43,457 bases of DNA from assembly GCA_042217545.1 (NCBI GenBank), contig JBDGSM010000003.1, positions 1-43,457 on the forward strand, given 5' to 3'. How positions within the stretch are numbered: the stretch's first letter is position 1; each line of letters opens with the position of its first letter. The notes beneath the pieces were generated by a model. It was not told the origin of the DNA, did no database searches, and was given only the letters and a program-made list of their open reading frames with translations. The position numbers were made by a program, and so were the translations under genes. Of this stretch, positions 1-43,455 are shown piece by piece. This stretch comes from Candidatus Nanohalobium sp. (GTDB taxonomy: Archaea; Nanohalarchaeota; Nanosalinia; Nanosalinales; Nanosalinaceae).

Positions 1-1493
1 CTTTCCACGATCATCTTGTCGTCTCTCTCGAGTACGCCTGAGAATGCTATCATGGCTGCGTAGAGGCCTCCGAACATCCCCAGGTCTATGATGAAGAACC
101 ATTTCGGGGTCACGGTAAACAGGTAATTTGAGAGGCTCCAGGGGAGGAAGATGCTTATTCCGCCGATGATCCACACCTTGAACGTTTTGAGCTTTAGGGG
201 AGGTCTTCCCAGGAATCTGTAGCTCATCAGGAGGTTGAATGCTGCAACTATCAGGAAGCTGGCTGTTGTGGCGTAGGCAGCTCCCAGGATACCCATATCG
301 AGCGGCACGATGAAGAGGTAATTCAGTATGAGGTTTGATACTCCTAGCATTGCTGAGGTCAGAAAGTTCAGTTCTGTTCGGTCATAGGCCTGGTAGATGT
401 TGTTAACCGGGCCTGTCAGTGATGAAGCCAGGAATCCTACCGATAAGACGCTCAGCACCTTCGAGGCCTGGTAGTATTCGTTTCCGAAGAGGAGCAGTGC
501 TGTTCTCGGGAAAAGGAAGATAACGAGGAAGATTGGAACCGCGACTATAGAGACCCATTTAGTCAATGTTCTGAAGATATCTGCGTTCAGACCTTCCTTA
601 CCTTTTGATTTGAGCTTGGAGGCGCTCGACATGAAGACTGAGTAGAAGATTGATGAGAAGCTGAAGATAAGCAAGGCAAAGGGATATGCTGCATTGTAAA
701 GCCCTACGCTTGTTGTTCCGATGAAATACTGTATCATGTAGGTGTCTATCTGGTTTGATATTACTCCGAAGACTCCGCCGGCTACGAGCGGAACTGAGAA
801 GTATCCCAGCTCTTTGAAGTTGTACTCGGGTGTGCTCTCAAGGACCTCATCAGGTGTCACCTTCCTGTAGAAGTAATAGGCTATCACTCCGCCGCAGATC
901 ACTGAGAACGAGAACGAGAATGCAGCACCGAGATAGCCGAAGCCCGCGTAGATCGCTATGGCGGTCAGCACTACCTTTATCACATTGACAGATATCTGTC
1001 CGGTGTATGCTGTGGGCTTCATGTTTTCGTAGCCTTCCCCGACGTTCGTGAGAACTTTTGTAGCTCCGAGGAACGGGAGAGATACTGCCACGAATCTTAT
1101 CGGCCAAAGGGATAGAGGTTCTTTGAATATTTCGTAAGCGATAAACCCTGAGCTGAGGAATAGCAATATTCCCAGTAAAGAGCTGGATGCCAGGACCATG
1201 ATCAGTCCTGAATGTATTGTTCCCTTTATCTTGCTGTATTTCTCTTTTCCCCTGTAATCTGAAACGTATTTCTGCACCCCTTGGTGAAAGCCGAGGAACG
1301 CGAAAGTCGTAACAGTGGAATAGACGCCCATCATCAGCGTAATTACCCCGTAATCTGTAGGACCGAGGAATCTTCCTGTCATCAACCGGTATAGAAGAGC
1401 GAGGGACTTGGCGGACAGTGTGGCTACAAACATTACTCCAGCCCCCTTCACGATTGATCTCAGCGCTGAATCCTTCTCGTCCCGGTCCTGCAT
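1..1493 (-). CDS. Oligosaccharide flippase (Wzx/RfbX, MOP superfamily), 3' end runs off the window
   Basis: Not in ORF track (no stop inside window). Manual translation from ATG at 1493: MQDRDEKDSALRSIVKGAGVMFVATLSAKSLALLYRLMTGRFLGPTDYG..., multi-TM, typical Wzx N-terminus (R.LGP..YG); frame consistent down to base 3. Confidence 0.9.
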   Translation of the reverse strand, partial: MQDRDEKDSALRSIVKGAGVMFVATLSAKSLALLYRLMTGRFLGPTDYGVITLMMGVYSTVTTFAFLGFHQGVQKYVSDYRGKEKYSKIKGTIHSGLIMVLASSSLLGILLFLSSGFIAYEIFKEPLSLWPIRFVAVSLPFLGATKVLTNVGEGYENMKPTAYTGQISVNVIKVVLTAIAIYAGFGYLGAAFSFSFSVICGGVIAYYFYRKVTPDEVLESTPEYNFKELGYFSVPLVAGGVFGVISNQIDTYMIQYFIGTTSVGLYNAAYPFALLIFSFSSIFYSVFMSSASKLKSKGKEGLNADIFRTLTKWVSIVAVPIFLVIFLFPRTALLLFGNEYYQASKVLSVLSVGFLASSLTGPVNNIYQAYDRTELNFLTSAMLGVSNLILNYLFIVPLDMGILGAAYATTASFLIVAAFNLLMSYRFLGRPPLKLKTFKVWIIGGISIFLPWSLSNYLFTVTPKWFFIIDLGMFGGLYAAMIAFSGVLERDDKMIVE

Positions 1494-1550
1494 ACTAAAT
1501 AAAAGGCCTCTCTAAGCTATAAAAAAAGTGATAGAAAATCCTCAATTGTA

Positions 1551-2957: not shown

Positions 2958-2987
2958 GATGCTAATTCACTATTTTTAATGTGTAAA

Positions 2988-4004
2988 ATGGAATCAAAAA
3001 AAGTAGCTGTTTTGGCTTCGAGATTCTACAGATATGGAGGAATCCCTAGAGTCGTCACAAGGCTGTTGGATAATCTTGAGGAAATTGAGGGGTTAGAGTT
3101 TGATGTTATAACTTCGAGGACAGACTTTTATTGGGCTGAAAGAGTGGATGCAGATATAAAACAAATTTCAACTTATCCTCACCCGGTTCTAAGTTTCTTC
3201 AACCCTTTAACTATCAGGAAAATGGAGGAATATGACCTTGTATGGATTCATAACACATATTTGAACAGGCTGTCTACAATATTGGACACTCCAACTATTG
3301 CTACTTTTCATCCTCCACATAGGAGATATTCAAGCATATTTGACTTTGAAAGAGGTGTTCAAGCCACTCTAGAATCTTTTCTTCAGGAAAGAGGGTTGAG
3401 ATATCTACAGTTCACAGATAGAGTGGTCGGTATTTCAGATGAGGTTAGGGAAAGGTTAACGGAGCATTATAAAGCAAATGCTGTTAGAATTTATCATGGG
3501 GCCGATCTTCCTGCGAGTGAGAAGTCAGCAACGTCTGAAGAATTTATATTCGCATTTGCTGTGGATGCAACCGTAGAATCTGTTGCTGAGGATTATCCCG
3601 TAAAGGCGCTGACTTCAACAGGTCAGATAGAGGAAATAGAGGATAAGACGGATTCAGGCCTTATTTCTGCAATCAAGAGATCTAAGTTTGTGGTTTCCGG
3701 GTCTTTTCAAGAGGGTTTCGGCCTTGAGCCTGTTGAAGCAGCTTTCTGCGGCAAGCCGGCAGTTGTTAGGGCAGTAGGAGGACACGAAGAAACTATAAAT
3801 CACGGTGAAACAGGTTATCTGGCTAATAATAGTAAGGAATTCAAAAAGTTCGTAGAAAAATTATGGGGGGATGAGGCTCTAAGGGAAAAAATGGGCGGGA
3901 AGGCCTTTGAAAGAGCTAAAGATAAATTTACTTGGAGAAGAGCTTCTTTGAAGTATCTAGAGGAATTTAATGATCTTATGGGTACAAGTTTCCAACTAAA
4001 CTAA
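2988..4004 (+). CDS. Glycosyltransferase family 4 (GT-B)
   Basis: YGGI N-terminal motif, QEGFGLEPVEAAFCGKPAV (EX7E), HGETGYL, KFTW; start ATG 2988 (or 2979); visibly AT-rich codons. Confidence 0.9.
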   Translation: MESKKVAVLASRFYRYGGIPRVVTRLLDNLEEIEGLEFDVITSRTDFYWAERVDADIKQISTYPHPVLSFFNPLTIRKMEEYDLVWIHNTYLNRLSTILDTPTIATFHPPHRRYSSIFDFERGVQATLESFLQERGLRYLQFTDRVVGISDEVRERLTEHYKANAVRIYHGADLPASEKSATSEEFIFAFAVDATVESVAEDYPVKALTSTGQIEEIEDKTDSGLISAIKRSKFVVSGSFQEGFGLEPVEAAFCGKPAVVRAVGGHEETINHGETGYLANNSKEFKKFVEKLWGDEALREKMGGKAFERAKDKFTWRRASLKYLEEFNDLMGTSFQLN

Positions 4005-4990
4005 AAGTCTATGTTATCTGTTTCGCTCTGGTACCGGCCTTCCCTCTCTATAATTTCTCCTTTACCGATCTTACTTAGGAGCATTCTTAGATCTTCTCTT
4101 AGTATGGTTTTTTTCAGGTCTGATTCTCCCTTTGTTGGCTCCCAACTACCATTCTCAAATCGCCAGGCAGTATCATAAGATACATAGCCATCGATTACAC
4201 TTCTCCCGGCTTTCGGACATTTCTCTACTAAGTTAATCCCATCATTTTTGAGCGAAGAGCCTTTCATCAAGTTAAGCGCTGTTTCTGTCAGGTCAATTAA
4301 TCTTGCGTTTTCTTCTTGAATGCCATCGTAGTTGAGGAATACTGTTGGTACTTCCACTAGCTCCCTACTCATAGGGTGGCCGTGTGCAAATCTACGCCTA
4401 AAATTTTTTCTTTCACCTAAGAGTTCGCCGTGATCTGAGGTGAATATTATCAGAGTGCTTTGCTTCAATCCTCTTTTCTCAAGCTCCTCTATATGTTCCC
4501 AAAAATGGCTTTCGACACTCTTGCTACCTTCTTCATATTTCTCATGTATGTTTTCAGAGCCTCTGACCTCTCCATCTTCCATCTGATGTGCTAGCAGATC
4601 GTTACCATGACCCATCTCCCCATAGGGTATATGTGTGTCCATGGCTCTTTCGATGTAGACGAATGGTGGTTCTATTTCGTCTAGTTCCTTCGCTTCAGGT
4701 GTGTGCTTCAGTACTGTATTTCTTACTGGGTCCAGTTCGTTGTCGTAGAAGCTGCCGTTCTCAAAGAAGTCGAATATCGTCCTGTGGTGGGCTGAGAGAG
4801 TATCGTTGAATCCTCTTACGCTGTGGTTCTCAGGGCTTTTGCCTGTGATCAGAGATGCGAAGGATACTGGGGTATGCAGTGACGGTGCTAGCGTGTTAAT
4901 CACATTTCCCTCTTCTGCTATGCTGTCTGGAACGTGGTCATATCGCAGGGAGTCTGAGACGAAGATGAAGATGTTCTCGAATTCGCTCAT
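4001..4990 (-). CDS. Sulfatase-like hydrolase/transferase (AlkP superfamily)
   Basis: NIFIFVSDSLRYD, HTPVSFASLITG, THIPY, IIFTSDHGELLGE, HGH, VPTVF; lacks the C/S-x-P-x-R formylglycine motif. Confidence 0.85.
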   Translation of the reverse strand: MSEFENIFIFVSDSLRYDHVPDSIAEEGNVINTLAPSLHTPVSFASLITGKSPENHSVRGFNDTLSAHHRTIFDFFENGSFYDNELDPVRNTVLKHTPEAKELDEIEPPFVYIERAMDTHIPYGEMGHGNDLLAHQMEDGEVRGSENIHEKYEEGSKSVESHFWEHIEELEKRGLKQSTLIIFTSDHGELLGERKNFRRRFAHGHPMSRELVEVPTVFLNYDGIQEENARLIDLTETALNLMKGSSLKNDGINLVEKCPKAGRSVIDGYVSYDTAWRFENGSWEPTKGESDLKKTILREDLRMLLSKIGKGEIIEREGRYQSETDNIDF

Positions 4991-6303
4991 ATATCTACTT
5001 CCTCTATTTCCTTGTGATATGTTATTGACTCGAGTTTTTGAAGAGTTTTTGTTTCTTTCTTTAATTTGCCGAGTAGGCTTTGAGTTATTTCTTCGTCTCC
5101 GTAGAGATGCTCTCCGTCCTCATCTATGACTGCTCTGTTTTTCCCATCTGTTATCATTTTACAGGATTTTTCTTCATCGTCAATGTTTTCTGCGATGGCG
5201 TAACCTTTGGCCTCGAAGGGTTCTCTATCCAGCAACGACTCTATCATTTTTTGTATCTCTCTCAGGGTTGTGATATCTTCTGGCTCGAACAATCCGTCTA
5301 GATTGGTTTCCTCGCTGTAAATGATGAAAGGGACTTTCAGCATCTCATCGGAGCATGAAGGTGTATCGTGTCCTTGTGCAGGCTCCTCGTGTTCCAGGGA
5401 GTTGTCGAAGAAGAGCTCTCCGTGGTCAGATGTAATTATGAATACGGTTTCGGGGTTTTCCCCCCTGTATTCGGTGATGAAGTCCTTTAACTGCTTGTCG
5501 ATATATCTTATACAGTCGTCGTATAGATTGATTCTTTTCTGCAAATTTTCGCCTTTCGCCTTCTCCCTAGCGTTCACTACACCGTCTTTAGGCCGGTAGT
5601 AAGATGAAAATTTTCTACTGAATCCTATAGGGGGAGAATATGCAGCGTGGACCTCCATGAAGTTGCAGAAGGCGAATAAAGGTTTTTCTACCTGCTTTCC
5701 TTTTCTTTTGATTCTTCTGATGCTTTTGGTAGATCCGTAGTCGGATATGCCCCACCTTTTGCCGAATTTTCTCTCGAACTTGAAACCAGCTAACTTCAGG
5801 ACTGTTCCCGGGCCCTTCTTCGCTGCTTTCTTCATGGCTGAGAGGTACTTTTCTTTCCTTGAGTCCCAGTCGCCTCTATGTATTTCCTTTAGCATTTCGT
5901 TTGAGTCTCTGTTGCCCATGTCCGATGCCCAGAGCTGGAAGTCGAAGTCGTCGAAGGCCTCATCGTATCCGTAGAGGTCGTTCACCCACATGTTGTTGCT
6001 GTTTCCGTAGGTATGGTATCCTTTTTCCTTGAGGGAGTTCACTAAGAGATTTTCCCTTTCCAGCTCAGGGTTCTCGTTGCTGATTATCTTGTGGTCGGAA
6101 ACGAGATCTCCTGTGAATATCGATGCATGGCTCGGGACACTCCAGAAGGAGTTTGCGTAACATTTCTCGAATTTTACGCCTTTCTCAGCCAAGCTGTCTA
6201 TGAAAGGGGAAGTCTCCCTCTCATATCCGTAACAGCCTAGGTGATCAGGCCTCAGGGAATCTATGACCAAAAGCATTATGTCTGGTTTGTCCACTGAAGC
6301 CAT
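4987..6303 (-). CDS. Sulfatase-like hydrolase/transferase (AlkP superfamily)
   Basis: Likely start ATG 6303 (MASVDKPDIMLLVIDSLRPDHLGCYGY), WSVPSHASIFTG, NFMEVHAAY, IITSDHGE, KVPFII; S-x-P-x-H instead of C/S-x-P-x-R. Confidence 0.88.
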   Translation of the reverse strand: MASVDKPDIMLLVIDSLRPDHLGCYGYERETSPFIDSLAEKGVKFEKCYANSFWSVPSHASIFTGDLVSDHKIISNENPELERENLLVNSLKEKGYHTYGNSNNMWVNDLYGYDEAFDDFDFQLWASDMGNRDSNEMLKEIHRGDWDSRKEKYLSAMKKAAKKGPGTVLKLAGFKFERKFGKRWGISDYGSTKSIRRIKRKGKQVEKPLFAFCNFMEVHAAYSPPIGFSRKFSSYYRPKDGVVNAREKAKGENLQKRINLYDDCIRYIDKQLKDFITEYRGENPETVFIITSDHGELFFDNSLEHEEPAQGHDTPSCSDEMLKVPFIIYSEETNLDGLFEPEDITTLREIQKMIESLLDREPFEAKGYAIAENIDDEEKSCKMITDGKNRAVIDEDGEHLYGDEEITQSLLGKLKKETKTLQKLESITYHKEIEEVDI

Positions 6304-8194: not shown

Positions 8195-8294
8195 CGAAAA
8201 TCAGAGATTTTCTGGACATACAGAAAATTACGGTGAAATTTTGAACGAAGATTTGAAGAAATCTTCTTGCAGAAAACACGCGAGGCGAGTTTTC
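8195..8294. repeat. Array of four short hairpin repeats in alternating orientation (CGAA..TTCTG / CAGAA..TTCG family)
   Basis: 8195 CGAAAATC-aga-GATTTTCTG; 8221 CAGAAAATT-n7-AATTTTG; 8246 CGAAGATTT-gaag-AAATCTTC; 8270 CAGAAAAC-n11-GTTTTC. Confidence 0.8.
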
Positions 8295-8296
8295 AA

Positions 8297-9082
8297 ATGA
8301 AAGTTATCGGTATAGACGCGGCTACTTGGGACATGATAAAACCTCATAGAGACGAACTTCCAAACTTTGACAGGCTGATGAACGAATGCGATTACAAGAC
8401 TGTGACTGTCGAGGAGACGCCAAAGTCAGCTCCTCTGTGGACTTCGATCTTTACAGGCCTTCGTCAGAGCCAGCACGGCCACAAAGATTTTGTGGTTGAC
8501 GACGATTTACAGAAAAGGGAGGATATAGATGGGGACTTTGTCTGGGAGGTCATGGAGGACATAGATTCCAGGATACTGCAGATTCCTTCGATTATCCCGC
8601 CGATCAACTACAACACAAGTTATGAGCCGGAGGGCTTCGGAGTCTCCAGCGATCTGGAAGAACTGGAGGCCGACAGGAAGAAGCTGATCGAGAAGTCGAA
8701 GGAAGTTCTTGAAGACGATCCCGAGTTCTTCGCTGTCGTCTTCATGCAGCTTGATCGCGTCAGCCATTTCTACTGGGACGATAAGGATCTGATCCTGGAA
8801 TGGTACAGGAAGATGGATGAAGTCCTGGGAGAACTGCTGGAGTACTACGACTTTGACGGCGATGAACCGCTTGTAGTACTTTCAGATCACGGTTTCGCGG
8901 AGTTCGGTGAGGGAAGGATCCAGACGCTGCCAGAGGAGACTCCTCACGGCACTCTTGAGGGCGACCACCACGAGGACGCTGTCCTGATCACGAAAAACGT
9001 TAATTTCGAGATTGAGCAGCCTGAGGACGTCGCGAAATCTATCCTGAATCATTATGGCTACGACGTGGAGGAGTTGTCATAA
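8297..9082 (+). CDS. Alkaline phosphatase superfamily / phosphodiesterase-like protein
   Basis: Start ATG 8297 MKVIGIDAATW, PKSAPLWTSIFTG, LDRVSH, VVLSDHGF, GDHHEDA. Confidence 0.85.
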   Translation: MKVIGIDAATWDMIKPHRDELPNFDRLMNECDYKTVTVEETPKSAPLWTSIFTGLRQSQHGHKDFVVDDDLQKREDIDGDFVWEVMEDIDSRILQIPSIIPPINYNTSYEPEGFGVSSDLEELEADRKKLIEKSKEVLEDDPEFFAVVFMQLDRVSHFYWDDKDLILEWYRKMDEVLGELLEYYDFDGDEPLVVLSDHGFAEFGEGRIQTLPEETPHGTLEGDHHEDAVLITKNVNFEIEQPEDVAKSILNHYGYDVEELS

Positions 9083-9084
9083 TG

Positions 9085-9105
9085 CAGAAAATCTACAGGT
9101 TTTCG
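9085..9105. repeat. Hairpin repeat unit (same family)
   Basis: CAGAAAATC-taca-GGTTTTCG directly after the TAATG at the end of the AlkP gene. Confidence 0.65.
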
Positions 9106-9141
9106 AATTACGGCTATGATCATCCAGAGCACAAGAAAAGG

Positions 9142-9167
9142 ACTTAAGTACTTAGGTGAGTAAGTTA
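9142..9167 (+). promoter_or_regulatory. Promoter/operator of the vapBC-like pair (ACTTA/TAAGT half-sites)
   Basis: ACTTAAGTACTTAGGTGAGTAAGTTA; repeated with one mismatch at 10907-10932 upstream of the paralogous antitoxin. Confidence 0.65.
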
Positions 9168-9172
9168 CTAGT

Positions 9173-9445
9173 ATGGGAGATATCAAGGTTTCGGTTCCGG
9201 ATGAGAAAGAAGAAAAATTCAGGAAAGCTGCTATGAAGGTTTTCGGACACAAGAGAGGCTCTATCAGCAAGGCTGCCACCAAAGCTTTGGATGAGTGGGC
9301 GGAAAGAATGTCTTTTGAGAAGGATTTGAAGATGCCTGAGGATCCTGTAGAATTCCTTGAAGGCAACATGGCTGGAGTTGAGGAGAGTGGTGTTGAACTT
9401 CAGGAACAAGCTAATGAGGTAAGATCAGATGAAGTGTCTAATTGA
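9173..9445 (+). CDS. RHH-type antitoxin (VapB-like)
   Basis: IKVSVPDEKEEKFR...GHKRGSISKAATKAL RHH pattern; overlaps the downstream PIN gene. Confidence 0.8.
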   Translation: MGDIKVSVPDEKEEKFRKAAMKVFGHKRGSISKAATKALDEWAERMSFEKDLKMPEDPVEFLEGNMAGVEESGVELQEQANEVRSDEVSN

Positions 9446-9839
9446 TGCGAACATCTTCCTGGAAGCTCAGCTTGAACAGGGAAAAAGTGAAGTCTGCAGA
9501 GAGTTCCTTGCTGAGGTCAGAGATGGTGACATTGAAGGAGTTTTGACTATGTTTCACGCCGATACTATAGCGGTGATGATGGAGAATAGGGGTTTCCAGG
9601 ACAAGATTTCTGGGTTCATGCTCAGTCTCTACATGTATGAAGGGCTGGACGTATTTACTCTAGAGTTATCAGGGAAGGCTAAAGCTATGATGTCTGATAC
9701 TGGACTAAGTTTCGATGACAGTATAGCCGTTCAGACAATGAAGGAGCTTGAAATAGAAAAAATTGTTTCATACGATGATGACTTTGATGGATTGAAGGAA
9801 AGAACTACTCCTGAAGAAGTCCTAAAAAATACTACGTGA
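9429..9839 (+). CDS. vapC: PIN-domain toxin (VapC family)
   Basis: MKCLIDANIFLE, LSFDDSI, IVSYDDDFD: PIN acidic residues. Confidence 0.9.
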   Translation: MKCLIDANIFLEAQLEQGKSEVCREFLAEVRDGDIEGVLTMFHADTIAVMMENRGFQDKISGFMLSLYMYEGLDVFTLELSGKAKAMMSDTGLSFDDSIAVQTMKELEIEKIVSYDDDFDGLKERTTPEEVLKNTT

Positions 9840-9847
9840 TTATATCT

Positions 9848-10765
9848 ATGCCAGAAGCACCAGTTACACGTGAAGAGATCGAGAACGCGCCTATAAAGGC
9901 AAAAATCAGGGCAGGAGAGGAAGTTGTCAAGCGAGCGCTTGAGGAGTACGACACCGATAACGTCGTCATCGGTTTCACCGGTGGCAAGGACTCCACTCTT
10001 ACGGCCTGGCTCGTGAAGAGGGTCTGCGAGGAGCACGGCTTCGACAAGCCGCGCTTCATGTTCGTGGACCACGGCCAGCACTTTGACGAGCTGGAGGACT
10101 ACGTGGAAAGACTCGCAAGCGACTGGGGATTCGAAGTCCTGGTAGCCAGAAACGATGACCTGATCGAGAAAGCAGATCAGCCCGGAGACATGGTTCCTGT
10201 AGCTGAACTTAACGAGACCAACCAGGAGGAGGCAGCAAGGATCGACGAAGAACTTGAAGAAGTACCATGGCTTATGGATACTGAAGCAGGAAACCACCTC
10301 CTCAAGACCGTGCCGATGAACGAACTCCTGAAAAAAGAAGGTATCGAAGCAGTCATCAACGGAGTTCGCTGGGACGAACACGAATCCAGGGGGGACGAGG
10401 ACTTCTACAGTCCAAGGGACAACCCAGACCACATCAGAGTACACCCGATCCTACAGCTAACAGAAAGAGATGTCTGGGACGTATCCTGGTTCCACATGGT
10501 ACCGGACATCACAGGAATCGACATAGACGAATACCCGGAGAGTCCAGAAGACCTCCCCGAAGGCCTCGCAAAGGATGACGTACCGATCTCGCCAAAGTAC
10601 TGGGCAGGATTCAGAAGTCTGGGATCCGAAGTATCCACGGACAAGAGCGCCGAAGAACCAGCATGGCTCCAGGACGTAGAGAACACGAAGGAAAGAGCTG
10701 GAAGAGCCCAGAACAAGGACGACAAAGAGATTATGGACAAGTTGAGAAAGCTAGGATATATGTGA
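9848..10765 (+). CDS. cysD: Sulfate adenylyltransferase subunit 2 (CysD)-like, PAPS-reductase fold
   Basis: FTGGKDS PP-loop, GVRWDEHESR, RVHPIL, FRSLG, ERAGRAQ...MDKLRKLGYM CysD-type tail; lacks the ECGLH motif and Fe-S cysteines of CysH. Start ATG 9848. Confidence 0.75.
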   Translation: MPEAPVTREEIENAPIKAKIRAGEEVVKRALEEYDTDNVVIGFTGGKDSTLTAWLVKRVCEEHGFDKPRFMFVDHGQHFDELEDYVERLASDWGFEVLVARNDDLIEKADQPGDMVPVAELNETNQEEAARIDEELEEVPWLMDTEAGNHLLKTVPMNELLKKEGIEAVINGVRWDEHESRGDEDFYSPRDNPDHIRVHPILQLTERDVWDVSWFHMVPDITGIDIDEYPESPEDLPEGLAKDDVPISPKYWAGFRSLGSEVSTDKSAEEPAWLQDVENTKERAGRAQNKDDKEIMDKLRKLGYM

Positions 10766-10775: not shown

Positions 10776-10808
10776 AGGCCTGAAAAGGCCTAATCTTTCT
10801 TTATTTTT
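10776..10808 (+). terminator. Putative terminator: AGGCCT-GAAA-AGGCCT hairpin plus T-rich tract
   Basis: Two self-complementary hexamers closing a GAAA loop 10 nt after the cysD stop, followed by AATCTTTCTTTATTTTT. Confidence 0.45.
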
Positions 10809-12542: not shown

Positions 12543-13442
12543 TTATTCAAGAAGCTCTCTGGCGCATTCCCTTACTGAATCCGCAGAGTTCCTGCCCGGC
12601 TTCCATCCGGTCGACTTCAGCTTCTCTATCTCAAGCCTCATCTCCGGAACATCGCCGTCCCAGCCTTTCTCCCCGCCCGTGTAAGAGTATTCCGGGTCGA
12701 GACCCATCTCATCACTTACAATATCCGCGATGCCGTCCACATCTATAGAGTCCTCGGAACCTATGTTGAAAGCAGTCCCCGAGGCCTTCCAGGCCTTGAT
12801 TATACCCCTCACAGTGTCATCCACGTGTAGATAGCTCTTCCTCTGCTTCCCGTTGCCGAGGATCGTCAACTCCTCAGGATTATCCTTCAGTTTATGTATG
12901 AAATCGTAGATAACGCCTTTCTGATTCCTGCCGCCGACAATATTTGCCAGGCGGACGATAGTCGCATCTATACCGAAGATCTGCTGATAGACCTGGCACA
13001 TGTGTTCGCCTCCGGCCTTTGTAGCGCCGTACATCGATATAGGATCAAGCAAAGCATCTTCAGGCGTCGGAATCTCCGCGTCCTCGCCATAAACTACGGA
13101 AGAAGAGGTGAAGACTAACTCCTCCACACCTGAACTCTCACAGGCCTCCAGAACATTCTTCGTACCTCTCAGATTCTCTTCGAAATCCTTATCCTGGTCA
13201 TCAGGGAACGTGTTCACCTTGGGATTAGCGGCCAGATGAAAGACAGCATCTACATCTGAAAAAGCATCTTCAAGGCCTTCATAATTCTTTATATCATGTT
13301 CAACCAGCTCTGCATTCTCCGGAACGTTTTCCTCAAGACCTGAGGACATGTTGTCGACAACCTTGACCTCGTGATCCTCGAGCAGTTTTTCCGATAGCCT
13401 TGATCCTATGAAGCCAGCTCCTCCTGTGACCGCGACCTTCAT
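12543..13442 (-). CDS. NAD-dependent sugar epimerase/dehydratase (GalE-like)
   Basis: VTGGAGFIG, FHLAA, TSSSVVYG, YGATK, GNGKQRKSYLHV. Confidence 0.92.
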   Translation of the reverse strand: MKVAVTGGAGFIGSRLSEKLLEDHEVKVVDNMSSGLEENVPENAELVEHDIKNYEGLEDAFSDVDAVFHLAANPKVNTFPDDQDKDFEENLRGTKNVLEACESSGVEELVFTSSSVVYGEDAEIPTPEDALLDPISMYGATKAGGEHMCQVYQQIFGIDATIVRLANIVGGRNQKGVIYDFIHKLKDNPEELTILGNGKQRKSYLHVDDTVRGIIKAWKASGTAFNIGSEDSIDVDGIADIVSDEMGLDPEYSYTGGEKGWDGDVPEMRLEIEKLKSTGWKPGRNSADSVRECARELLE

Positions 13443-14578: not shown

Positions 14579-15484
14579 GTGAAACACCGAACCCTGGTAA
14601 TCCTCGCCGCGGTACTCCTCGCCTCTGGCTGCGCATCCCAGACACCGCCGGAGGAAAGACTGAAACAGCTCAGCTCGCAGGCCTCCAACGCCACCTACAA
14701 GGTAACTTACGAGATGGAGAGGCCTGGAACATCCGTCATCAGGCAGGGCCTCACGGACCCGGTCCTCTACAGCTATGAAGGAGAGACCATGTTCAGCACC
14801 TCCACGTCCTTCATCGGGGGAAAGGCCCTGATGAACATCTACGAATACACCGAGGGAAAATCAATAACGTGCATCACCAGGAAGATCGCTGGCGCCCCTG
14901 AAAAAAGCTGTCAGATCTCAAACACGACCACAAGCCTGTATACAGAGGCCTCACGGTACGCGGACAAAGCAGACAGCATAAACGTTGCATACCTCGGAGA
15001 AAGGAAGTTCGCGGGAAGAAAATGCGGCATGTTTGGCCTGGGGATACCGGAAAAACAGTTCAAGGCCTCCTCCAGAAACACTGGCGCAAACGTGAAGCTC
15101 TGCGTCGACAAGAAAAAAGGATACGTCGCCTACATCCAGATCAACCTCACCAACCCGATCAGGACAGCGACAGGAAAAATAAACACGATACTCCAGCTGA
15201 AGGCTCTCAACTACTCCTCAAAGGTGAAAAAGAGCAGAATCGAAACTGGAAAAGGCCTCGTAACCTCCACAAGCTGTAACCCTCTCAAAGCCCAGGTTAC
15301 GTCCCTTGGATACAAGGGAAAGTTTAACCTATCCGTCAACGACGCTAATACAACCTACAGCCTGAAGAAGGCGGAGAGCAAGGCCTTTGATCTATCTAAC
15401 TCTTCTATCAACGGTGTGAACGATGTGAAAGCTTTTTATTCCGGCAAAGTTTCGTCTGCTTCCTGTAACGCTACTGCAGGCTAG
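14579..15484 (+). CDS. Lipoprotein, paralog 3 (strongly basic)
   Basis: GTG start; lipobox LLASGC; TYKVTY, GERKFAGRKCGMF, LCVDKKKGY; many Lys and sequons. Confidence 0.8.
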   Translation: MKHRTLVILAAVLLASGCASQTPPEERLKQLSSQASNATYKVTYEMERPGTSVIRQGLTDPVLYSYEGETMFSTSTSFIGGKALMNIYEYTEGKSITCITRKIAGAPEKSCQISNTTTSLYTEASRYADKADSINVAYLGERKFAGRKCGMFGLGIPEKQFKASSRNTGANVKLCVDKKKGYVAYIQINLTNPIRTATGKINTILQLKALNYSSKVKKSRIETGKGLVTSTSCNPLKAQVTSLGYKGKFNLSVNDANTTYSLKKAESKAFDLSNSSINGVNDVKAFYSGKVSSASCNATAG

Positions 15485-15533
15485 GTTGCCCGAGGACGGT
15501 GGTAAATTAAAAGTTCGATGAAAAAGTTCTTAC

Positions 15534-16289
15534 ATGGCAAAGCAGAGGATATCACTTACCCTTGATGAGGACCTTCTGGAGAAGATAGACGCAGAAGTAG
15601 ACCGGAAGGATCTGAACCGTTCCCAGATGATGGATCAGGTGGTCTCGGAGTATCTCTCCTCACAGGGCCTGGATACCGCTGTCGTTTTCTGCGGTGGCGA
15701 AGAAGCGAAATCTATGCAGGTCTACGATGGAAAGCCTGTGCTGAGCCATGTGCTGGATCATCTCTCATCCGAAGGTATCGACCGAATAGTACTTCTCGTA
15801 GGGCCTAACAAGGATGAAATTGAGGGTCATTTCGGCTCCGAGTACCGTGGAAGCGCACTGGAATACATGGAAGAGCAGGAGCCTGAAGGAACAGCCTCTG
15901 CACTGGAGAAAGTGAAGGAAAAGATAGGTAAGACCTTTGTCGCAGTCAACGGACATGTTGTTACGGACGTAGATCTCCAGGACATGCTGAAAGTCCACAG
16001 GGACGAGGGAAACGTCGCCACAATGGCGTTGACGACTGTAGAGAACCCCTCGGATTATGGAGTTGTTAAACTGAAGGGAAGAACGATTCTTGGATTCGAG
16101 AGAAAACCCGATCCCGGAAGAGAGCCTTCAAGACTGATCAACGCCGGAACCTACATCTTCGAGCCCGCAATATTTTCAAAACTGGGCCCTGAAAGCCTTG
16201 AAACAGTATTCGAACATCTTTCATCCGATAAACAGCTATCAGGCTACATTTACGGCGGCAAATGGCAGGACATTAAGGAGAACTGGTAA
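15534..16289 (+). CDS. RHH domain fused to a degenerate sugar-phosphate nucleotidyltransferase domain
   Basis: N-terminal RISLTLDEDLLEKID...NRSQMM (RHH); C-terminal GKPVLSH, EQEPEGTASAL, VNGHV, YGVV, FERKP, INAGTYIF; GxGTR and catalytic GD are missing. Confidence 0.8.
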   Translation: MAKQRISLTLDEDLLEKIDAEVDRKDLNRSQMMDQVVSEYLSSQGLDTAVVFCGGEEAKSMQVYDGKPVLSHVLDHLSSEGIDRIVLLVGPNKDEIEGHFGSEYRGSALEYMEEQEPEGTASALEKVKEKIGKTFVAVNGHVVTDVDLQDMLKVHRDEGNVATMALTTVENPSDYGVVKLKGRTILGFERKPDPGREPSRLINAGTYIFEPAIFSKLGPESLETVFEHLSSDKQLSGYIYGGKWQDIKENW

Positions 16290-16680
16290 CAAGCTCCGAA
16301 ATATCTTCTTCAAGCAGTGAAAGCAGGTTGTACAGCAGAGAGACTCCAAGGCCCCCCAGGAAGAACGCAGGATATGCTGAGAAGGTATGCGCAAGAAGTC
16401 CGGCGAAGACTATAGGTGCAAGCGAGGCCATGTAGTGCACTGTAGCAAGAGCCAGGTACTCTGACTCGTTCTTCTTCACTTCCTGTCTGGCGCCGCCGAA
16501 ACTGGCGACAGCCAGCACACCAAACCCTAACACGGCTCCGAGGCCGTAGGAAAGCGCGTGAAACATATTCGGTGCGCCAAAGGCGTTCACAAGTACTGCA
16601 CCGGTACCCCAGAAACCTATTGTAAACCCGTAGGCCCGGGACTCACCTGCCAGCATCGATCTAAGGAAGTTCTGCCTCAC
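16273..16680 (-). CDS. Small multi-pass membrane protein
   Basis: Hydrophobic segments, ESRAYGFTIGFWG; GTG 16680 preferred as start (ORF track extends to 16740). Confidence 0.65.
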   Translation of the reverse strand: MRQNFLRSMLAGESRAYGFTIGFWGTGAVLVNAFGAPNMFHALSYGLGAVLGFGVLAVASFGGARQEVKKNESEYLALATVHYMASLAPIVFAGLLAHTFSAYPAFFLGGLGVSLLYNLLSLLEEDISELVTSSP

Positions 16681-16731
16681 ATCTCTAGAACCGTGCTTTC
16701 TGGTTAAAAGTCCTACGAAGATTTTTAAGTG

Positions 16732-16762
16732 GTAATACATCGTAATATATTACGGAGTAATA
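16732..16762. promoter_or_regulatory. 14-bp palindrome CGTAATATATTACG with three GTAATA half-sites
   Basis: Palindrome 16741-16754; GTAATA at 16732, 16742, 16757; lies between TTTTTAAG (16722) and ATG 16762 in a divergent intergenic region. Confidence 0.5.
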
Positions 16763-17520
16763 TGTCTGCATTCGGGAGACAGGACTACGACACATACGAG
16801 ATGCTCCTCCAGGAGTTTTCTGGAGAGAAGCTCAACGGCCAGATGCCTGAAGAAGCAGCGATACTGGCCCTGGATGATGTCCAGGTAACAGGAGCAGAAA
16901 CAGAGGAAAGAGTCAGGCCTGGAGAGTACGTAAGAGTCCAGTCGCCAGAATGCATTGAAGGCCTCGCAGCTGTGCTCCCTGGAGAAGTCTTCACAGATTC
17001 TGTAACAAGGATTTCGGAGCACGAGAGGAACGGAGGAGGCTTCGTATTCACAAACGGTTCCCGCGCTGAACGACCGGAGGCCTCGTTCTCCAACGTCGAG
17101 CTGAAGTCAAGGTTCCCGGATGAGCTGAGAGACTACCCGGAGACAGTTCACGTCCACAACGTCCCGGAATGGTACTTCTGCGTCGGAGAGTTTGAGATGG
17201 CGCTGGGCAACGAAAACATGCCGGACAGTCCGCAGGACGTGTACGATGAAGCTCGGAGCATTCCCGGAGATGATCCAAACGCCCTCCTCGAGGAGAGGCC
17301 TGACTGGTTCGACACGTACACTTTCGAGGACGAAGTCCTCAGAGTCGATTCCGGCCAGTACCACGGCATAATGAGCAAAGACGACGAAGCATACCTTGGC
17401 GTGGCAAGAGGAGATCCTTCAGGAGAGGAGGAATGGGTCGGCAAATGGGACCTGGAAGGAAACCAGTTCTACGACCATTTTGAAGAAGAACCAAGCCTAA
17501 ACCAGCTAGTATCCTACTGA
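16762..17520 (+). CDS. Acidic protein with cupin-like metal motifs
   Basis: HVHNVPEWYF (H-x-H-x3-E) and VLRVDSGQYHG resemble cupin motifs 1 and 2; start ATG 16762. Confidence 0.6.
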   Translation: MSAFGRQDYDTYEMLLQEFSGEKLNGQMPEEAAILALDDVQVTGAETEERVRPGEYVRVQSPECIEGLAAVLPGEVFTDSVTRISEHERNGGGFVFTNGSRAERPEASFSNVELKSRFPDELRDYPETVHVHNVPEWYFCVGEFEMALGNENMPDSPQDVYDEARSIPGDDPNALLEERPDWFDTYTFEDEVLRVDSGQYHGIMSKDDEAYLGVARGDPSGEEEWVGKWDLEGNQFYDHFEEEPSLNQLVSY

Positions 17521-26556: not shown

Positions 26557-26646
26557 GAAAAAAGCCCTGTCGTGGAATCCTTTTAAACACTCCGCCATTA
26601 GAAAGAAAGAGATTATAAAAACTCCCGCCTCAATCCCATTCAAGTC

Positions 26647-37129: not shown

Positions 37130-38023
37130 ATGGCTTTTCTCTGCGTCGATATAGGAGGAACGAACACACTCTTAGGTATAGGAAACGGCGGTTTTCAGGT
37201 AATAGAAAAATTTGATACAGAAAAATTTCTCAGAGACGTAAACGGCAAAGTCAACGAAGCACTGAACGATATAGATTACAGCAGAGACGAACTGGAAAAA
37301 GTTGCCGTCGCGGCAGCAGGCCCTATCGACAGGGAGGAGAAAACTTTCAGGCCTCCAAACTTCTCAAATTCGGGCCTCGGAGAAGTCGACCTGGGGGAAG
37401 CGTTCCAGGACTTCGGCGAGATCTACGTTGTCAATGATGGAACAGCCGCAGTCGTCGGTGAATACCATTACGGTGACCACGATGCGGAAAACCTGGTCTA
37501 CGTAACAATATCCAGCGGAATCGGAGCAGGAGTCATACTGGAAGGCAGAGTTATAGAGGCCTGGAACGGGAACTTCGGCGAAGTAGGCCACATGAAGATA
37601 AACGAGGAAGGCCCTGAATGCGGATGCGGAGGAACAGCACACTGGGAGGCCTACTCATCTGGAGATAACCTCCCTGAAATGGCTGAAGAACTTTTCGATG
37701 CCCAGTTCAACAGCGCTCTTGAAATATTCCGGGCATACCAGGACTACAGCTCTGTCGCCGAGAAAGTAATATCCAAGATGCATGAAGCCAATACGATAGG
37801 AGTTACAAATATAGCGAACGTCTTCAATCCTGAGAAAATCGTGTTCGGCGGCGCAATACCTCTCAATCATACTGCTATGATCCTTGAACCCTTGAGAAAC
37901 GAAGTTAAGAGAGAATCAATCAACAGGCCTCCAGAGATCGAGCTTTGTGATCTCGAGGAGTACTCTGTGCTTCATGGTCTCCGCGCAGTATGCAACGGAG
38001 AGTTTAAGCCATCCCAGCTCTAA
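37130..38023 (+). CDS. ROK family sugar kinase (glucokinase-like)
   Basis: DIGGT, VNDG, TISSGIGAG, GEVGH, CGCGGTAHWEAYSSG. Confidence 0.92.
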   Translation: MAFLCVDIGGTNTLLGIGNGGFQVIEKFDTEKFLRDVNGKVNEALNDIDYSRDELEKVAVAAAGPIDREEKTFRPPNFSNSGLGEVDLGEAFQDFGEIYVVNDGTAAVVGEYHYGDHDAENLVYVTISSGIGAGVILEGRVIEAWNGNFGEVGHMKINEEGPECGCGGTAHWEAYSSGDNLPEMAEELFDAQFNSALEIFRAYQDYSSVAEKVISKMHEANTIGVTNIANVFNPEKIVFGGAIPLNHTAMILEPLRNEVKRESINRPPEIELCDLEEYSVLHGLRAVCNGEFKPSQL

Positions 38024-38032
38024 GGCCTTTAC

Positions 38033-38503: not shown

Positions 38504-38505
38504 AC

Positions 38506-38964: not shown

Positions 38965-39121
38965 TTTTGGGTTCACAGAAAATTTGGTGAAAAGTTCTTT
39001 TTTCTCATTTGAGATCCAAAGTTTGCTTCAAATTTTAATTCCCAGTAAACAGTTAAATAATGGCCTGTCGCGGGGTAAAAACCTTACGACCGAGGAAGCA
39101 TTTTCCCTCTCTCGAAAGGCC

Positions 39122-39742
39122 TTACTTGACTTCAACAGTCTCCTCTTCACTGTCAAAGGATCCCAGGTGATTCAAAGCGATACCGTAGATCAGTGTGGAG
39201 GCGGATACGGCGAGAAGACCTACGCCCAGGAACAGGAAGAACTGTTCCAGCCCCATGCCGTGAGAGGCCTCGGCGGCTTTCTGTGCTGTGGTATTGGCTG
39301 CTTCTCTTGTAGCATTCGCTGCATCCATTGCTTTGAAAGTTTCCATCTGGCCGCCTCCTGCCTGTGGTGAGGCCTTTGGCGCGGCTTTAACTGCTTCTCC
39401 TGCTGTCTTCCTTGCGAAGTCTTTCCAGATCAGGAATGTTCCTGCTACAGCGGTCAGTACCGAGGAACCTATGGAGAACTTGACCTTTCGTTCTTTACCG
39501 TTGACTATGGCATCTGCCTTCCTGGTCGGGCTGTAGACTACGCGTCTGCGGCCTTTTTTCTGATCTTTCTCGACCAGGCCTGCCTCTGTCAGTTCCTTGA
39601 GATGGGAGGAGATCGTGGATTTTGACCTGTCCAGTTCCTCGCTTAACTGCGTCGTCGTTGATTCTTTTTCAAGCACCCTCCTCAGGATCTTCAACCTGGT
39701 CGGCGAGGAAAGAGCTCTGATAGATTTGAAGTCTATTTCCAT
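39122..39742 (-). CDS. ArsR-type HTH regulator with two C-terminal TM helices
   Basis: RALSSPTRLKIL, SKSTISSHLKELTEAGLV; hydrophobic SSVLTAVAGTFLIW and FFLFLGVGLLAVSASTLIYGIAL. Confidence 0.85.
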   Translation of the reverse strand: MEIDFKSIRALSSPTRLKILRRVLEKESTTTQLSEELDRSKSTISSHLKELTEAGLVEKDQKKGRRRVVYSPTRKADAIVNGKERKVKFSIGSSVLTAVAGTFLIWKDFARKTAGEAVKAAPKASPQAGGGQMETFKAMDAANATREAANTTAQKAAEASHGMGLEQFFLFLGVGLLAVSASTLIYGIALNHLGSFDSEEETVEVK

Positions 39743-39783
39743 GAAAGGTTTTGAGTTGGAAAGGATTTTTTAGCTTAGGCCTC

Positions 39784-39803: not shown

Positions 39804-39930
39804 TTTTTTATTGAGGGATCATAACTTTTGGGGAGATTATCCGTTATCAGAACTTGATGAGGAGTTTTTCCCGGTTAAATCCCCGTACCTATAAAAAAGA
39901 GCCTTTACAATCCTTTGTTGGTGAATTAAC

Positions 39931-40098: not shown

Positions 40099-40136
40099 AA
40101 ACGTCTCAAAACCACTTATTTTTCTCTTTTTGTTTT

Positions 40137-40364: not shown

Positions 40365-40389
40365 AGGAAATAATTGTACAGCGCCTGTT

Positions 40390-41703: not shown

Positions 41704-42190
41704 AACTCCTCACCTTCTCGATGACATCCTCCAGAGAGCTCTCATCTCGGTCAAAAACTATTCCGGGGAGGCCTGAACGTTCCAGTTCCTCTTCACGGTC
41801 GTCTACAAGGAAATCGATCCCGTCAACGTTTTTCGGAGCGTTCTGAACGATGAAGAGCTGGTCGAAGAGCCTGTTCGCGCCGGAGGCCTTCACCCTCTCC
41901 TTCTGGAAACGTTCCTCACCCCGCGTTACGATCACAATTTCATGGTCTGGTTTCAGCTTCCTCAGCTCGTCGATGTCAGGATAGAGAAACCTGTTGACGC
42001 CTTTAACTGCGTCGTATACTTCTTCAACATCTATTCCACAGGCCTCCGCATGTTTCTCTGGGGAGTAACAGCCTTCGCTGTCGTAGATATCTGCATCAAC
42101 GTGATGAAGGCCTGCCTGTTCTTTAATGTATTCGTTAAACTCGTCGGTCCTGAACAGCACCCGGTCGAAGTCGAAACCTATCTTCATCAT
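41693..42190 (-). CDS. HAD-superfamily protein
   Basis: IGFDFDRVL, IVTRG, K, FLVDDREEE. Confidence 0.8.
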   Translation of the reverse strand: MMKIGFDFDRVLFRTDEFNEYIKEQAGLHHVDADIYDSEGCYSPEKHAEACGIDVEEVYDAVKGVNRFLYPDIDELRKLKPDHEIVIVTRGEERFQKERVKASGANRLFDQLFIVQNAPKNVDGIDFLVDDREEELERSGLPGIVFDRDESSLEDVIEKVRSFEA

Positions 42191-43455
42191 CTCTCACCCT
42201 GTTTTCTTACCTGCTCCTGGTCCACGTATACTGTTTCGCCGTTCTCAACGTTTTCATGTACTACTGTTGCAGGTCCAATCCTTGCCTCGCTGCCCACCTG
42301 TATTCCGGGCATAAGGGAGACGTTAACACCTATATCGACGTTCTCTCCTATGACTGCGCCCATGAATCTTCTTCCGGTCTCTTTCTCGTAGTCCTTTCCA
42401 AGCAGGTCTGAACTGATTTCAGGCCGCCCATCTTCTCTTCGGAACTTCCTGTTTGCTGTTATTGTTCCTGCACCGATCTTCGAGTTTCTCCCGATTATAG
42501 AGTCTCCTATGAAGCCTGAATGCATGGAGCTGCCTGGCTGGAAGACTGAGGCCTTGACCTCGCTGTTTGCGCCTACTGTGGCGCCTTTCTCCACGGCCAC
42601 GTGATCCCTCAGTAGCGAATTGTTTCCTACTGTCGCGTTTTCACCTATGTAGGCCGGTCCTTTTATCACGGCGTTCTCGTAGATAGTAGCATCGTCTTCC
42701 ACTATAACATTTCCTTTTATCTGCGCTGAGTCGGCTATGGAGGCCTTTTCGGATATGTTTCTGTCCTGCTGTTCCATGAGTTCTTCCAGTACTGAGAAAA
42801 GATCCCATGGATACTTGATGGAGTTCGTCTCCTCACCTATTCTAAGCACGGAGGCAGGCTCTCCGCTCATCTGTTCGCTTAATGCGTCCTCGTACTGGTA
42901 CTCCCAGGTCTCCACCTGGTCCAGGTAGTCGAAGAACTCCTCGTTCAGGAGGTACATTCCTACAACTTTCTGGTCGCTTGGAGCATCCTCGGGCCCGGGT
43001 TTCTCCACTAGGTCTACCGCCTGTCCCTCGTCGTCCAGTTCAAGTATGCCGTACTTCTCCGGCTCATCGGTCGGGGTGGAGACGAAAACTGTCTCCGCAT
43101 CCTCCTCTTCCGCTTTCTCTATCATCGGCTGGAAAAACTGTGCGGCATTTGCCCGGTAAGGAGTCAATACCAGGAACTTCCTGTCCAGAAGATCTTCGGC
43201 CTGTCGAAGAGCGTCGCCCATCCCTTTCGGCTCCTCCTGCACAACGTAGTGATCCGCAGCAGAGCCCAGGGCCTTCTCCATTTCCTCTCCCCGGCCCTGA
43301 ACAACTATCACTTCCTCTACACCGGCGTTCCTCAGCTCCTCTATAGTATGCTCTATTATAGGCTTTCCAAGGACCTGTGTAAGGCCTTTATGCCGGTTGT
43401 CGCTCAACGGCCTGAACCTGCTGGATTCACCTGCTGCGAGGATTACGGCTTTCAT
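42187..43455 (-). CDS. glmU: Bifunctional sugar-1-phosphate nucleotidylyltransferase/acetyltransferase (archaeal GlmU-like)
   Basis: AVILAAGESSRFRPL, EKP, YPWDL, left-handed hexapeptide repeats, GAGTITAN, GAVIGENVDIGVN. Confidence 0.85.
   Translation of the reverse strand: MKAVILAAGESSRFRPLSDNRHKGLTQVLGKPIIEHTIEELRNAGVEEVIVVQGRGEEMEKALGSAADHYVVQEEPKGMGDALRQAEDLLDRKFLVLTPYRANAAQFFQPMIEKAEEEDAETVFVSTPTDEPEKYGILELDDEGQAVDLVEKPGPEDAPSDQKVVGMYLLNEEFFDYLDQVETWEYQYEDALSEQMSGEPASVLRIGEETNSIKYPWDLFSVLEELMEQQDRNISEKASIADSAQIKGNVIVEDDATIYENAVIKGPAYIGENATVGNNSLLRDHVAVEKGATVGANSEVKASVFQPGSSMHSGFIGDSIIGRNSKIGAGTITANRKFRREDGRPEISSDLLGKDYEKETGRRFMGAVIGENVDIGVNVSLMPGIQVGSEARIGPATVVHENVENGETVYVDQEQVRKQGER

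Follow-up and report, generated by a model that had tools for sequence, protein, structure and literature searches.

The AGGCCT array in the window and in the genome

The 43,457-base stretch analyzed here, which we call the window, is contig JBDGSM010000003.1 (C23) of a Candidatus Nanohalobium sp. genome, G000, which comprises 1,032,751 bases in 82 contigs and is 92% complete. It carries the palindromic hexamer AGGCCT in 147 exact copies, one per 296 bp, of which the first is located at 64-69 and the last at 43382-43387. Within this dispersed array (64..43387), 13 copies are intergenic and two fall on stop codons; all others lie in coding sequence, in all three phases. An earlier reading of the window's sequence, below called the original prediction, had put the number at about 145 and the excess at about 15-fold, and had likened the word to the highly iterated palindromes (HIPs) of cyanobacteria. 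These estimates proved accurate. In 100 dinucleotide-preserving shuffles of the window, the mean count was 12.28 (standard deviation 3.64, largest 23), and none reached 147. In all of G000, the word occurs 3,699 times, an observed-to-expected ratio (O/E) of 15.1 relative to base composition. The organism was also correctly taken for a DPANN archaeon, its relatives being Nanohaloarchaea.

For comparison, we used two other motif-rich genomes, G001, which belongs to the same genus (g1) as G000, and G003, which belongs to genus g2 together with G035. The motif-poor relative G011 served as a contrast. G001 and G003 are, like the motif-rich genome G043, single contigs (95-98% complete), and their O/E values are even higher at 19.3 and 19.6, respectively. 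The density in motif-rich genomes is one site per 250-280 bp. The next palindromic hexamer has an O/E of only 2.3-2.9 (in G000 it is AGATCT, 2.3). In G000, AGGCCT outnumbers any other hexamer counted with its complement, the next unrelated pair being GAAGAA/TTCTTC with 2,815 occurrences, and all 82 contigs carry it at 1.3-5.9 sites/kb.

The enrichment belongs to the complete hexamer and is not explained by shorter words. In G000, the O/E climbs from 1.68 for GGCC and 1.91 for AGGC to 4.77 for AGGCC and 15.1 for AGGCCT, and 58% of all GGCC sit within AGGCCT; moreover, the word is unremarkable in 56 of the 70 genomes of the phylum. Other palindromes with the same core are depleted (O/E of 0.43 for TGGCCA, 0.31 for CGGCCG and 0.17 for GGGCCC). 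Extension to 7- and 8-mers adds no enrichment (Markov O/E of 0.95-1.08, with TAGGCCTA at 0.45 as the exception), and the flanks are nearly uninformative, position -1 being A, G, C and T at frequencies of 0.41, 0.28, 0.21 and 0.11. The unit is the exact 6-bp palindrome and not an asymmetric word of 9-12 nt. The word is truly a highly iterated palindrome of certain nanohaloarchaeal lineages, a phenomenon of the DNA level that spans the genome.

Coding constraints and occupancy

Genes were defined as the longest open reading frames (ORFs) without a gene finder, which gave 1,161 genes in G000. Coding DNA of this genome contains 3.47 sites/kb and intergenic DNA 3.95 sites/kb, although the G+C content of the latter is just 0.455. 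Codon or amino acid bias is insufficient to produce such numbers, as the original prediction had argued. Synonymous shuffling leaves 24.1 ± 4.6 of the 127 sites in the window genes (largest 35 of 200 shuffles) and 614.9 ± 19.7 of the 3,122 coding sites of G000 (largest 656 of 30 shuffles), whereas permutation of the codons within G000 genes leaves 307. All three phases are in use, again as predicted: AGG CCT (R-P) occurs 21 times in the window and 591 times in the genome, nAG GCC Tnn (E/K/Q-A-x) 45 and 1063 times, and nnA GGC CTn (x-G-L) 61 and 1468 times.

Codon choice varies with context. In motif-rich genomes, the AGG fraction of Arg codons is 0.80-0.89 in front of Pro and 0.20-0.31 in other contexts, whereas in G011 both values are 0.19. 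Similarly, Ala is encoded by GCC in 0.85-0.90 of cases in the E/K/Q-A-Tnn context and 0.21-0.24 elsewhere, the values for G011 being 0.26 and 0.20. The occupied fraction of all positions at which the amino acid sequence permits the word is 0.662 in G000, 0.739 in G001 and 0.727 in G003, compared to 0.086 in G011. Per Mb, motif-compatible peptides also occur about 1.8 times as often in motif-rich genomes as in G011, and therefore the protein sequences have been bent, too. A strong per-site force sets the exact 6-bp word wherever coding permits, overriding codon choice.

Sites are scarce within the first 30 nt of genes and accumulate on and just past stop codons: at offsets of -5, +1, +2 and +3 there are 24, 17, 31 and 27 sites in G001, as opposed to about 7 per offset farther downstream. 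We also observed that two giant ORFs of G001, at 420250-445971 (25.7 kb) and 875186-885133 (9.9 kb), contain 3.15 and 1.81 sites/kb, respectively, below the genome mean of 4.0/kb.

Spacing of the sites

The distances between neighboring sites in G001 and G003 deviate from a Poisson process in both directions. Gaps shorter than 30 bp number 213 in G001 (502 ± 21 expected) and 214 in G003 (454 ± 20 expected). Relative to Poisson expectation, nearest-neighbor gaps of 6-10 bp are strongly depleted (ratio of 0.19-0.26) and those of 500-1000 bp are moderately so (0.73-0.80), whereas gaps of 50-80 bp occur about as expected (close to 1) and gaps of 100-200 bp are in excess (1.08-1.32). In 1-kb bins, the index of dispersion is 0.85 and 0.94, i.e. 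the sites are under-dispersed despite a few deserts. The same effect is seen in the use of compatible positions, which are occupied at 0.43-0.65 within 30 nt of another site and at 0.70-0.84 at a distance of 60-250 nt. Neighboring AGGCCT sites interfere with each other within about 50 bp. Such interference would be predicted by competition between sites, where one is enough per fragment or footprint, and also by avoidance of hairpins between self-complementary copies; it would not be predicted by a repair ratchet that is blind to neighbors. On a much larger scale, the site density has long-period peaks at 74.5 kb in G001 (reached in none of 1000 bin permutations) and 52.3 kb in G003 (reached in 3.4%), with a null that ignores the autocorrelation caused by islands (lag-1 of 0.14-0.15).

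Conservation, turnover and imported DNA

Orthologs of G000 genes were compared in codon alignments of reciprocal-best pairs (624 with G001, 448 with G003 and 256 with G011). At an overall nucleotide identity of 0.724, 1,217 of 1,913 G000 sites (0.636) are AGGCCT at the same position of G001, whereas for other hexamers this fraction is 0.19-0.20. G003 has 526 of 1,334 G000 sites in common (0.394, controls 0.11-0.12), and G011 has 15 of 729 (controls 0.08). At positions with conserved amino acids, sharing rises to 0.887 in G001 (1,000 of 1,127) and 0.846 in G003 and is 0.065 in G011, with controls at 0.34, 0.28 and 0.22, respectively.

In 388 gene trios from the three motif-rich genomes, 390 positions carry the word in all three and 449 in G000 and G001, while 276, 432 and 736 are private; the apparent losses are 110 in G000 and 88 in G001. 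After allowing for losses, arithmetic on these counts makes the gains since the split of G000 and G001 approximately equal to the losses, and therefore the process is still running.

The largest desert of G001 is a 5.5-kb region without a single site (890530-896064; L068:10530-16064), whose start and a tRNA gene (L068:9121-9243) are separated by about 1.3 kb. Its genes encode a pyridoxal-phosphate enzyme/rhodanese and Orn/Arg-decarboxylase-like, ParA-like, CobW-like, ParB-like and NikR-like proteins. Against a typical ortholog identity of about 60% between G011 and this genus, the products of two of these genes match their G011 counterparts at 92% and 90% protein identity; in G000 and G003, they are absent or only 27% identical. 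To judge from these identities, the desert is apparently a recent transfer from a motif-poor lineage of another genus, and it is possibly a metal-related cassette. Other site-free genes are orphans with a G+C content of 0.35-0.40. Recently imported DNA is devoid of AGGCCT.

Sites and gaps in the window

The seven sites that the original prediction had named as intergenic (1504, 10776, 10786, 13470, 30641, 32450 and 39777) all lie outside ORFs, as do those at 8079, 11406, 20564, 20629, 33175 and 36896, which complete the set of 13 on the ORF map. Two of them, 10 bp apart (10776..10791), are directly downstream of the TGA stop codon (10763-10765) of a PAPS-reductase-like gene (9836-10765, Pfam PF01507). 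The two sites on stop codons are both associated with TAA. At 38021..38028 on the plus strand, the sequence reads TA/AGGCCT, the first A being common to the site and to the stop codon of the gene 37130-38023; at 39117..39124 on the minus strand, AGGCCT overlaps the stop codon of the gene 39122-39742, which encodes an ArsR-type helix-turn-helix protein. The sites at 64, 386, 464, 25745, 26310 and 26323 are coding and lie within the genes 3-1493 and 25621-26847. The closest pair of the window, 9 bp apart (12782..12796), is in the gene 12543-13442; such pairs are rare genome-wide. We also note five sites in the gene of an OGG-type 8-oxoguanine DNA glycosylase (OGG_N and HhH-GPD domains, 30892-31803).

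The largest motif-free gap of the window (8461..10560, 2.1 kb) covers a phosphodiesterase-fold gene and most of the PAPS-reductase-like gene. These two genes (8267-10765) are 82-89% identical at the protein level across genera, even to motif-poor G011, the typical value being 60-76%. The second gap (3907..5954, 2.05 kb) contains sulfatase-family genes of lower G+C content (0.44), and the third (15387..16914, 1.5 kb) contains the genes 15534-16289 and 16273-16740.

Distribution across the phylum

We counted the motif in 70 genomes of the phylum. Twelve genomes in four genera are motif-rich, two are intermediate, and the other 56 contain 32-579 sites. All three genomes of genus g1 (2,691-4,489 sites) and all three of g26 (1,554-2,478) are motif-rich, as are four of the five in g29 (1,481-3,249), the fifth of which, G046, is intermediate with 762 sites. 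Genus g2 is split: two of its six genomes have 3,601 and 4,131 sites and the other four (G047, G065, G066 and G067) have 232-404. The second intermediate genome, G064 of genus g28, has 892 sites in 1.3 Mb. A simple clade of two genera, which had emerged from a sample of 31 genomes, was overturned by this count. Among 28 named loci, the motif is abundant only in those of Nanohaloarchaea archaeon SG9, Candidatus Nanosalina sp. VS9-1 and MAG BLK6-1.bin.86; the locus of Ca. Nanosalina sp. J07AB43 is motif-poor, with 1 site in 13.5 kb. Eight motif-poor relatives were compared to VS9-1 at its AGGCCT sites; exact or one-mismatch words number 29 there, where about 52 would be expected from the mean identity, but the high share of synonymous positions in motif sites makes this null unsuitable.

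The patchiness of this distribution, even inside one genus, suggests that its determinant is easily gained or lost. Within genus g2, the motif state may not track the species tree: motif-rich G003 has a PadR-like protein 90% identical and an Ogt-like protein 75% identical to those of motif-poor G066, and motif-rich G035 is without close copies of them.

Among viral contigs (80 loci out of at least 122 stretches matching three sites within about 120 bp), none resembles these genomes, and the highest density, 2.7/kb, is found in a tandem repeat. In contig IMGVR_UViG_3300020577_009008 (22-10633, G+C 0.64), we found six successive matches to the AGGCCT triplet, whose starts are about 105 bp apart. 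This viral repeat looks like a tandem repeat that carries AGGCCT and is unrelated to the archaeal phenomenon.

Search for a cognate methyltransferase

The original prediction had offered a methylation- and repair-driven ratchet on a GGCC core as one of two possible causes, which implies a methyltransferase and a repair nuclease. Gene searches at the family level covered 41 genomes, nine of them motif-rich. C5 methylases (PF00145) are found in 14 of the 41, including a single motif-rich genome, G034 (2.1e-67), and N4/N6 methylases (PF01555, E<=1e-6) in nine, again including a single motif-rich genome, G031 (2.3e-33). Seven of the nine motif-rich genomes (G000, G001, G002, G003, G035, G043 and G050) thus contain neither, and these include the three single-contig genomes. 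In the 32 other genomes, the two families are found 13 and 8 times, respectively, and hence they do not go with the motif. Dam-type methylases (PF02086) are absent from the five motif-rich genomes searched, and so is Vsr (PF03852) above the cut-off, with one sub-threshold match in G000 (E 0.009, 16 bits). The only 'DNA methylase' match of G000 (PF02384, contig C19) turned out to be a UPF0020/RMKL-type RNA methyltransferase (8.7e-26), so that G000 has no DNA methylase of the PF00145, PF01555 or PF02384 type. These negative results apply to the named Pfam families, PF02384 having been searched in G000 only, and a novel methylase family could escape them.

The mutational pattern is similarly unsupportive of a ratchet. 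Single-base losses of the word, folded by symmetry, are spread over its positions (A1>G 48 of 146, C4>T 31, C5>T 17 and G2>T 15), and no position is a deamination hot spot. Its transition neighbors AGACCT/AGGTCT are not consistently depleted (O/E of 1.87, 1.64 and 0.71 in the motif-rich genomes vs 1.47 in G011). Among one-mismatch words in general, none is consistently depleted, and only the outer variant GGGCCT/AGGCCC (RGGCCY) is co-enriched, at 1.7-3.2 compared to 0.81 in G011.

A full restriction-modification pair for GGCC does occur in the family. In G017 (L006:1456-3355), a methylase that matches M.HaeIII over its entire length (residues 2-317, E 6e-96) adjoins an NgoPII-family endonuclease (7e-73), and this genome has just 73 AGGCCT sites. 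GGCC systems are therefore available to the family but accompany scarcity of the word rather than its abundance. No restriction enzyme family was found among the 233 G001 proteins scanned, which are shared with G003 and have no match in 65% of G011. The published example of nanohaloarchaeal methylation (PMC11001535) concerns a different word, GDGCHC, with 140 sites in Ca. Nanohalococcus occultus. We infer that a methylation-deamination-repair ratchet is not the cause of the abundance of AGGCCT.

Search for a reader protein

Candidate readers were sought among G001 ORFs that have a tblastn match in G003 and none in 620 kb (65%) of the G011 genome. There are 245 such ORFs, of which 233 were scanned with Pfam and 12 that crossed chunk borders were excluded. 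Most of the 245 are core genes located in the remaining third of G011, and a synteny filter left 30. Twenty-one unannotated candidates compared to PADLOC and NCBIfam yielded nothing suggestive of DNA modification or restriction.

None of the genes tested tracked the motif, and individual candidates were rejected according to their distribution in the family. VRR-NUC is present in 22 of the 41 genomes, the uracil-DNA glycosylase UDG in 35, Nre in 36 and the ArsR-type protein encoded in the window (39122-39742) in 40. A 200-residue S-adenosylmethionine methyltransferase that matches PADLOC mad2 is found in 40 of the 70 genomes at E<=1e-10, with close orthologs in motif-poor G017, G018, G005, G007, G042, G047 and G066. 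The Ogt-like, small winged-helix and PadR-like proteins all occur in motif-poor G066, and a 114-residue protein is located in a stretch that matches G066 DNA. An 85-residue ORF with a pI of 10 (L074:5188-5442, G001:C1:1005188-1005442) has matches in 36 of the 41 genomes. Most of these are interrupted by stop codons, and the ORF probably represents a non-coding element under conservation, perhaps an RNA gene, rather than a protein gene.

Possible causes of the iteration

The explanation we tentatively put first, although its likelihood falls short of even, is that DNA carrying the word is favored in exchange, recombination or repair by a sequence-specific factor that reads AGGCCT, in a drive similar to that of bacterial uptake sequences. 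The putative reader would bind AGGCCT as duplex DNA, in a sequence-specific manner and probably as a dimer. Word-carrying DNA would then gain an advantage in exchange, recombination or repair, which amounts to biased gene conversion or 'molecular drive'. We favor such a drive because it best matches the combination of the exact palindrome, the near-saturation, the continuing gains, the interference between neighbors, the motif-free imports, the lack of a methylase and the patchiness. The uptake signal sequences of Pasteurellaceae (USS) and the DNA uptake sequences of Neisseriaceae (DUS), as outlined in Bakkali 2007 (PMC1939737) and Findlay & Redfield 2009 (PMC2817400), have likewise reached thousands of copies through point mutations, both inside genes and outside them. 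They also affect the proteome, have a more regular spacing than a random one, mark own DNA against foreign DNA, from which they are absent, and need no methylation; for them, too, a molecular drive has been argued (PMC1939737). The second cause named in the original prediction, a DNA-binding or uptake signal, is in better agreement than the ratchet with the data on spacing, saturation and foreign DNA, while the protein that would prove it was not among the candidates. A more specific version, which we regard as doubtful, is that AGGCCT is the recognition signal of an archaeal system that tells own from foreign DNA in cell-to-cell transfer, recombination or nucleic acid scavenging, and that the determinant of this system is so rapidly gained and lost that sister species differ by thousands of sites and hundreds of amino acid changes.

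Several points weigh against such a drive. All nine candidate readers tested are present in motif-poor genomes as well, and the presence of a tenth in G066 is inferred from its DNA match. USS and DUS are non-palindromic words of 9-12 nt at about one per kb, whereas AGGCCT is a denser palindrome of 6 bp, and they depend on known competence machinery. We found ComEC (PF03772) in none of the 70 genomes and DprA (PF02481) in one, the motif-poor G045, which is weak evidence since these families match almost only the bacterial controls (ComEC matched only bacteria among 14) and an archaeal route is possible. Uptake signals usually follow clades, and here one genus has both states. The short-range repulsion could be explained by avoidance of hairpins between self-complementary copies. 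At about 70% saturation, the shared positions may be partly convergent, so that conservation neither separates drive from selection nor proves common ancestry. The gene calls are crude. We know of no demonstration of natural DNA exchange in these archaea.

Other causes have to be weighed on the same data. The sites could be the selected targets of an abundant dimeric DNA-binding protein that organizes the chromosome and is needed every few hundred bp. The regularized spacing, with its deficit of both very short and 500-1000 bp gaps, the retention of sites far above background and the 74.5-kb and 52.3-kb periods are all in keeping with such a nucleoid protein. Xu, Lawrence and Durand argue similarly for HIP1, for which a long-range periodicity of 10-90 kb is described (Xu et al. 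2018, PMC5861425). The small winged-helix paralogs even bear a faint likeness to Sso10a chromatin proteins (E 0.001, below the cut-off). However, a structural role requires neither an occupancy of about 70% nor altered proteins, close relatives manage without the word, the winged-helix candidate is not limited to motif-rich genomes, and the periodicity null ignores the autocorrelation from motif-poor islands, all of which makes this explanation unlikely. We consider it improbable that AGGCCT is a Chi-like mark of self, where a nuclease or helicase-nuclease would destroy DNA lacking the word, a bound protein would spare or repair the cell's own DNA, and each site would protect a stretch of it. 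These symbionts must scavenge nucleic acids. The site-free imports and low-G+C orphan genes, the even coverage and the ability of a palindrome to function in either orientation agree with a mark of this kind, and the genomes do encode SNase, TatD, NYN, VRR-NUC and Mre11-Rad50 nucleases. None of these nucleases has been found to be specific to motif-rich genomes, though, as the presence of VRR-NUC in more than half of the family illustrates, and the imported site-free islands persist in the genome. We know of no Chi-type system in archaea.

In a methyltransferase and mismatch repair ratchet, which is Elhai's model for HIPs, a cytosine methylase marks AGGCCT or GGCC and repair that restores the methylated word converts near-matches to it; here, the methylase could reside on an unassembled mobile element or be supplied by the host. 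Precedents for its components exist. Alternate HIPs are tied to cognate methylases (PMC4390886), AGGCCT-specific cytosine methylation accompanies a working restriction system in Alcanivorax (PMC12128166), and a methylase has been proposed to pass between symbiont and host (PMC11001535). In the family itself, GGCC restriction-modification circulates (G017), the motif-rich G034 and G031 carry a methylase, and the patchy distribution suits a mobile determinant. Nevertheless, gains continue in lineages without a methylase, and a ratchet that acts on each site separately does not predict interference between neighbors; together with the missing enzymes and the absence of both a hot cytosine and a depleted precursor, this leaves the ratchet with a small chance of being correct. 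Finally, there may be no reader at all, and the word may result from a neutral mutation bias that depends on context, from an artifact of assembly or binning, or as a by-product of amino acid composition. Nothing specific speaks for this except that strong oligonucleotide biases of unexplained cause exist in many genomes. On the other hand, the identical word appears in independent assemblies, two of them single-contig, it is sharply 6 bp long with weak flanks, its excess survives synonymous and codon-order shuffles, and the use of a potential site depends on its distance to others. Furthermore, a neutral bias would not keep 89% of the sites at conserved amino acids when controls keep 34%. We regard this last possibility as extremely improbable.

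Relation to known iterated words and significance

For three decades, the highly iterated palindromes of cyanobacteria have defied explanation. The nanohaloarchaeal word is of this known kind. HIP1 (GCGATCGC) and the alternate HIPs, as described in Elhai 2015 (PMC4390886) and Xu et al. 2018 (PMC5861425), resemble it in many respects. HIP1 is also a short G+C-rich palindrome, at least 15-fold over expectation and found in all gene phases and in spacers; its sites are also kept between related genomes far above background, as are 0.636 of the sites here against 0.19-0.20 for controls, part of which may be convergent; its one-base deviations also favor the outer positions, as does A1>G with the co-enriched RGGCCY here; its function is also unexplained, and some members of the group are also without the word. 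The differences are that AGGCCT has six bases and HIP1 eight, that AGGCCT is denser and near saturation of the positions that proteins allow, and that it occurs in Archaea, namely in DPANN symbionts with 1-Mb genomes, where it is polymorphic within a genus. In addition, HIPs are reported with methylases (Elhai 2015, PMC4390886), whereas AGGCCT is without a cognate methylase in most of the motif-rich genomes searched.

The remaining known systems are more distant. Restriction-modification systems of the StuI type (AGGCCT) and of the HaeIII/NgoPII type (GGCC) read the same word or its core as a palindrome by means of dimeric enzymes, and one of the latter is present in the same family. However, restriction targets are normally avoided or near neutral, whereas AGGCCT is enriched 15-20-fold, and the genome with the GGCC system is poor in it. 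Chi is asymmetric, orientation-biased and read by RecBCD/AddAB, unlike the palindromic AGGCCT, which has no orientation. What is new here is an iterated palindrome of six bases that is archaeal and near-saturated, has no cognate methylase and differs in state between members of one genus. A search of one literature library, supplements excluded, found no published report of AGGCCT as an iterated palindrome in archaea, in line with the original prediction, which knew of no such motif in a DPANN archaeon.

These findings provide a second, independent instance of a highly iterated palindrome, in another domain of life. The presence of both states within one genus is a natural contrast for finding the cause by comparative genomics. 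With at least two complete motif-rich genomes and a strain that is apparently in culture, experiments on the methylome, on pulled-down proteins and on DNA transfer seem practicable. The force that rewrites codon choice and roughly doubles certain dipeptides matters for phylogenetics and binning, and also for the detection of horizontal transfer, because imported DNA stands out as motif-free. If AGGCCT does tell own from foreign DNA, Archaea would have in it their first 'self' word comparable to uptake sequences or Chi.

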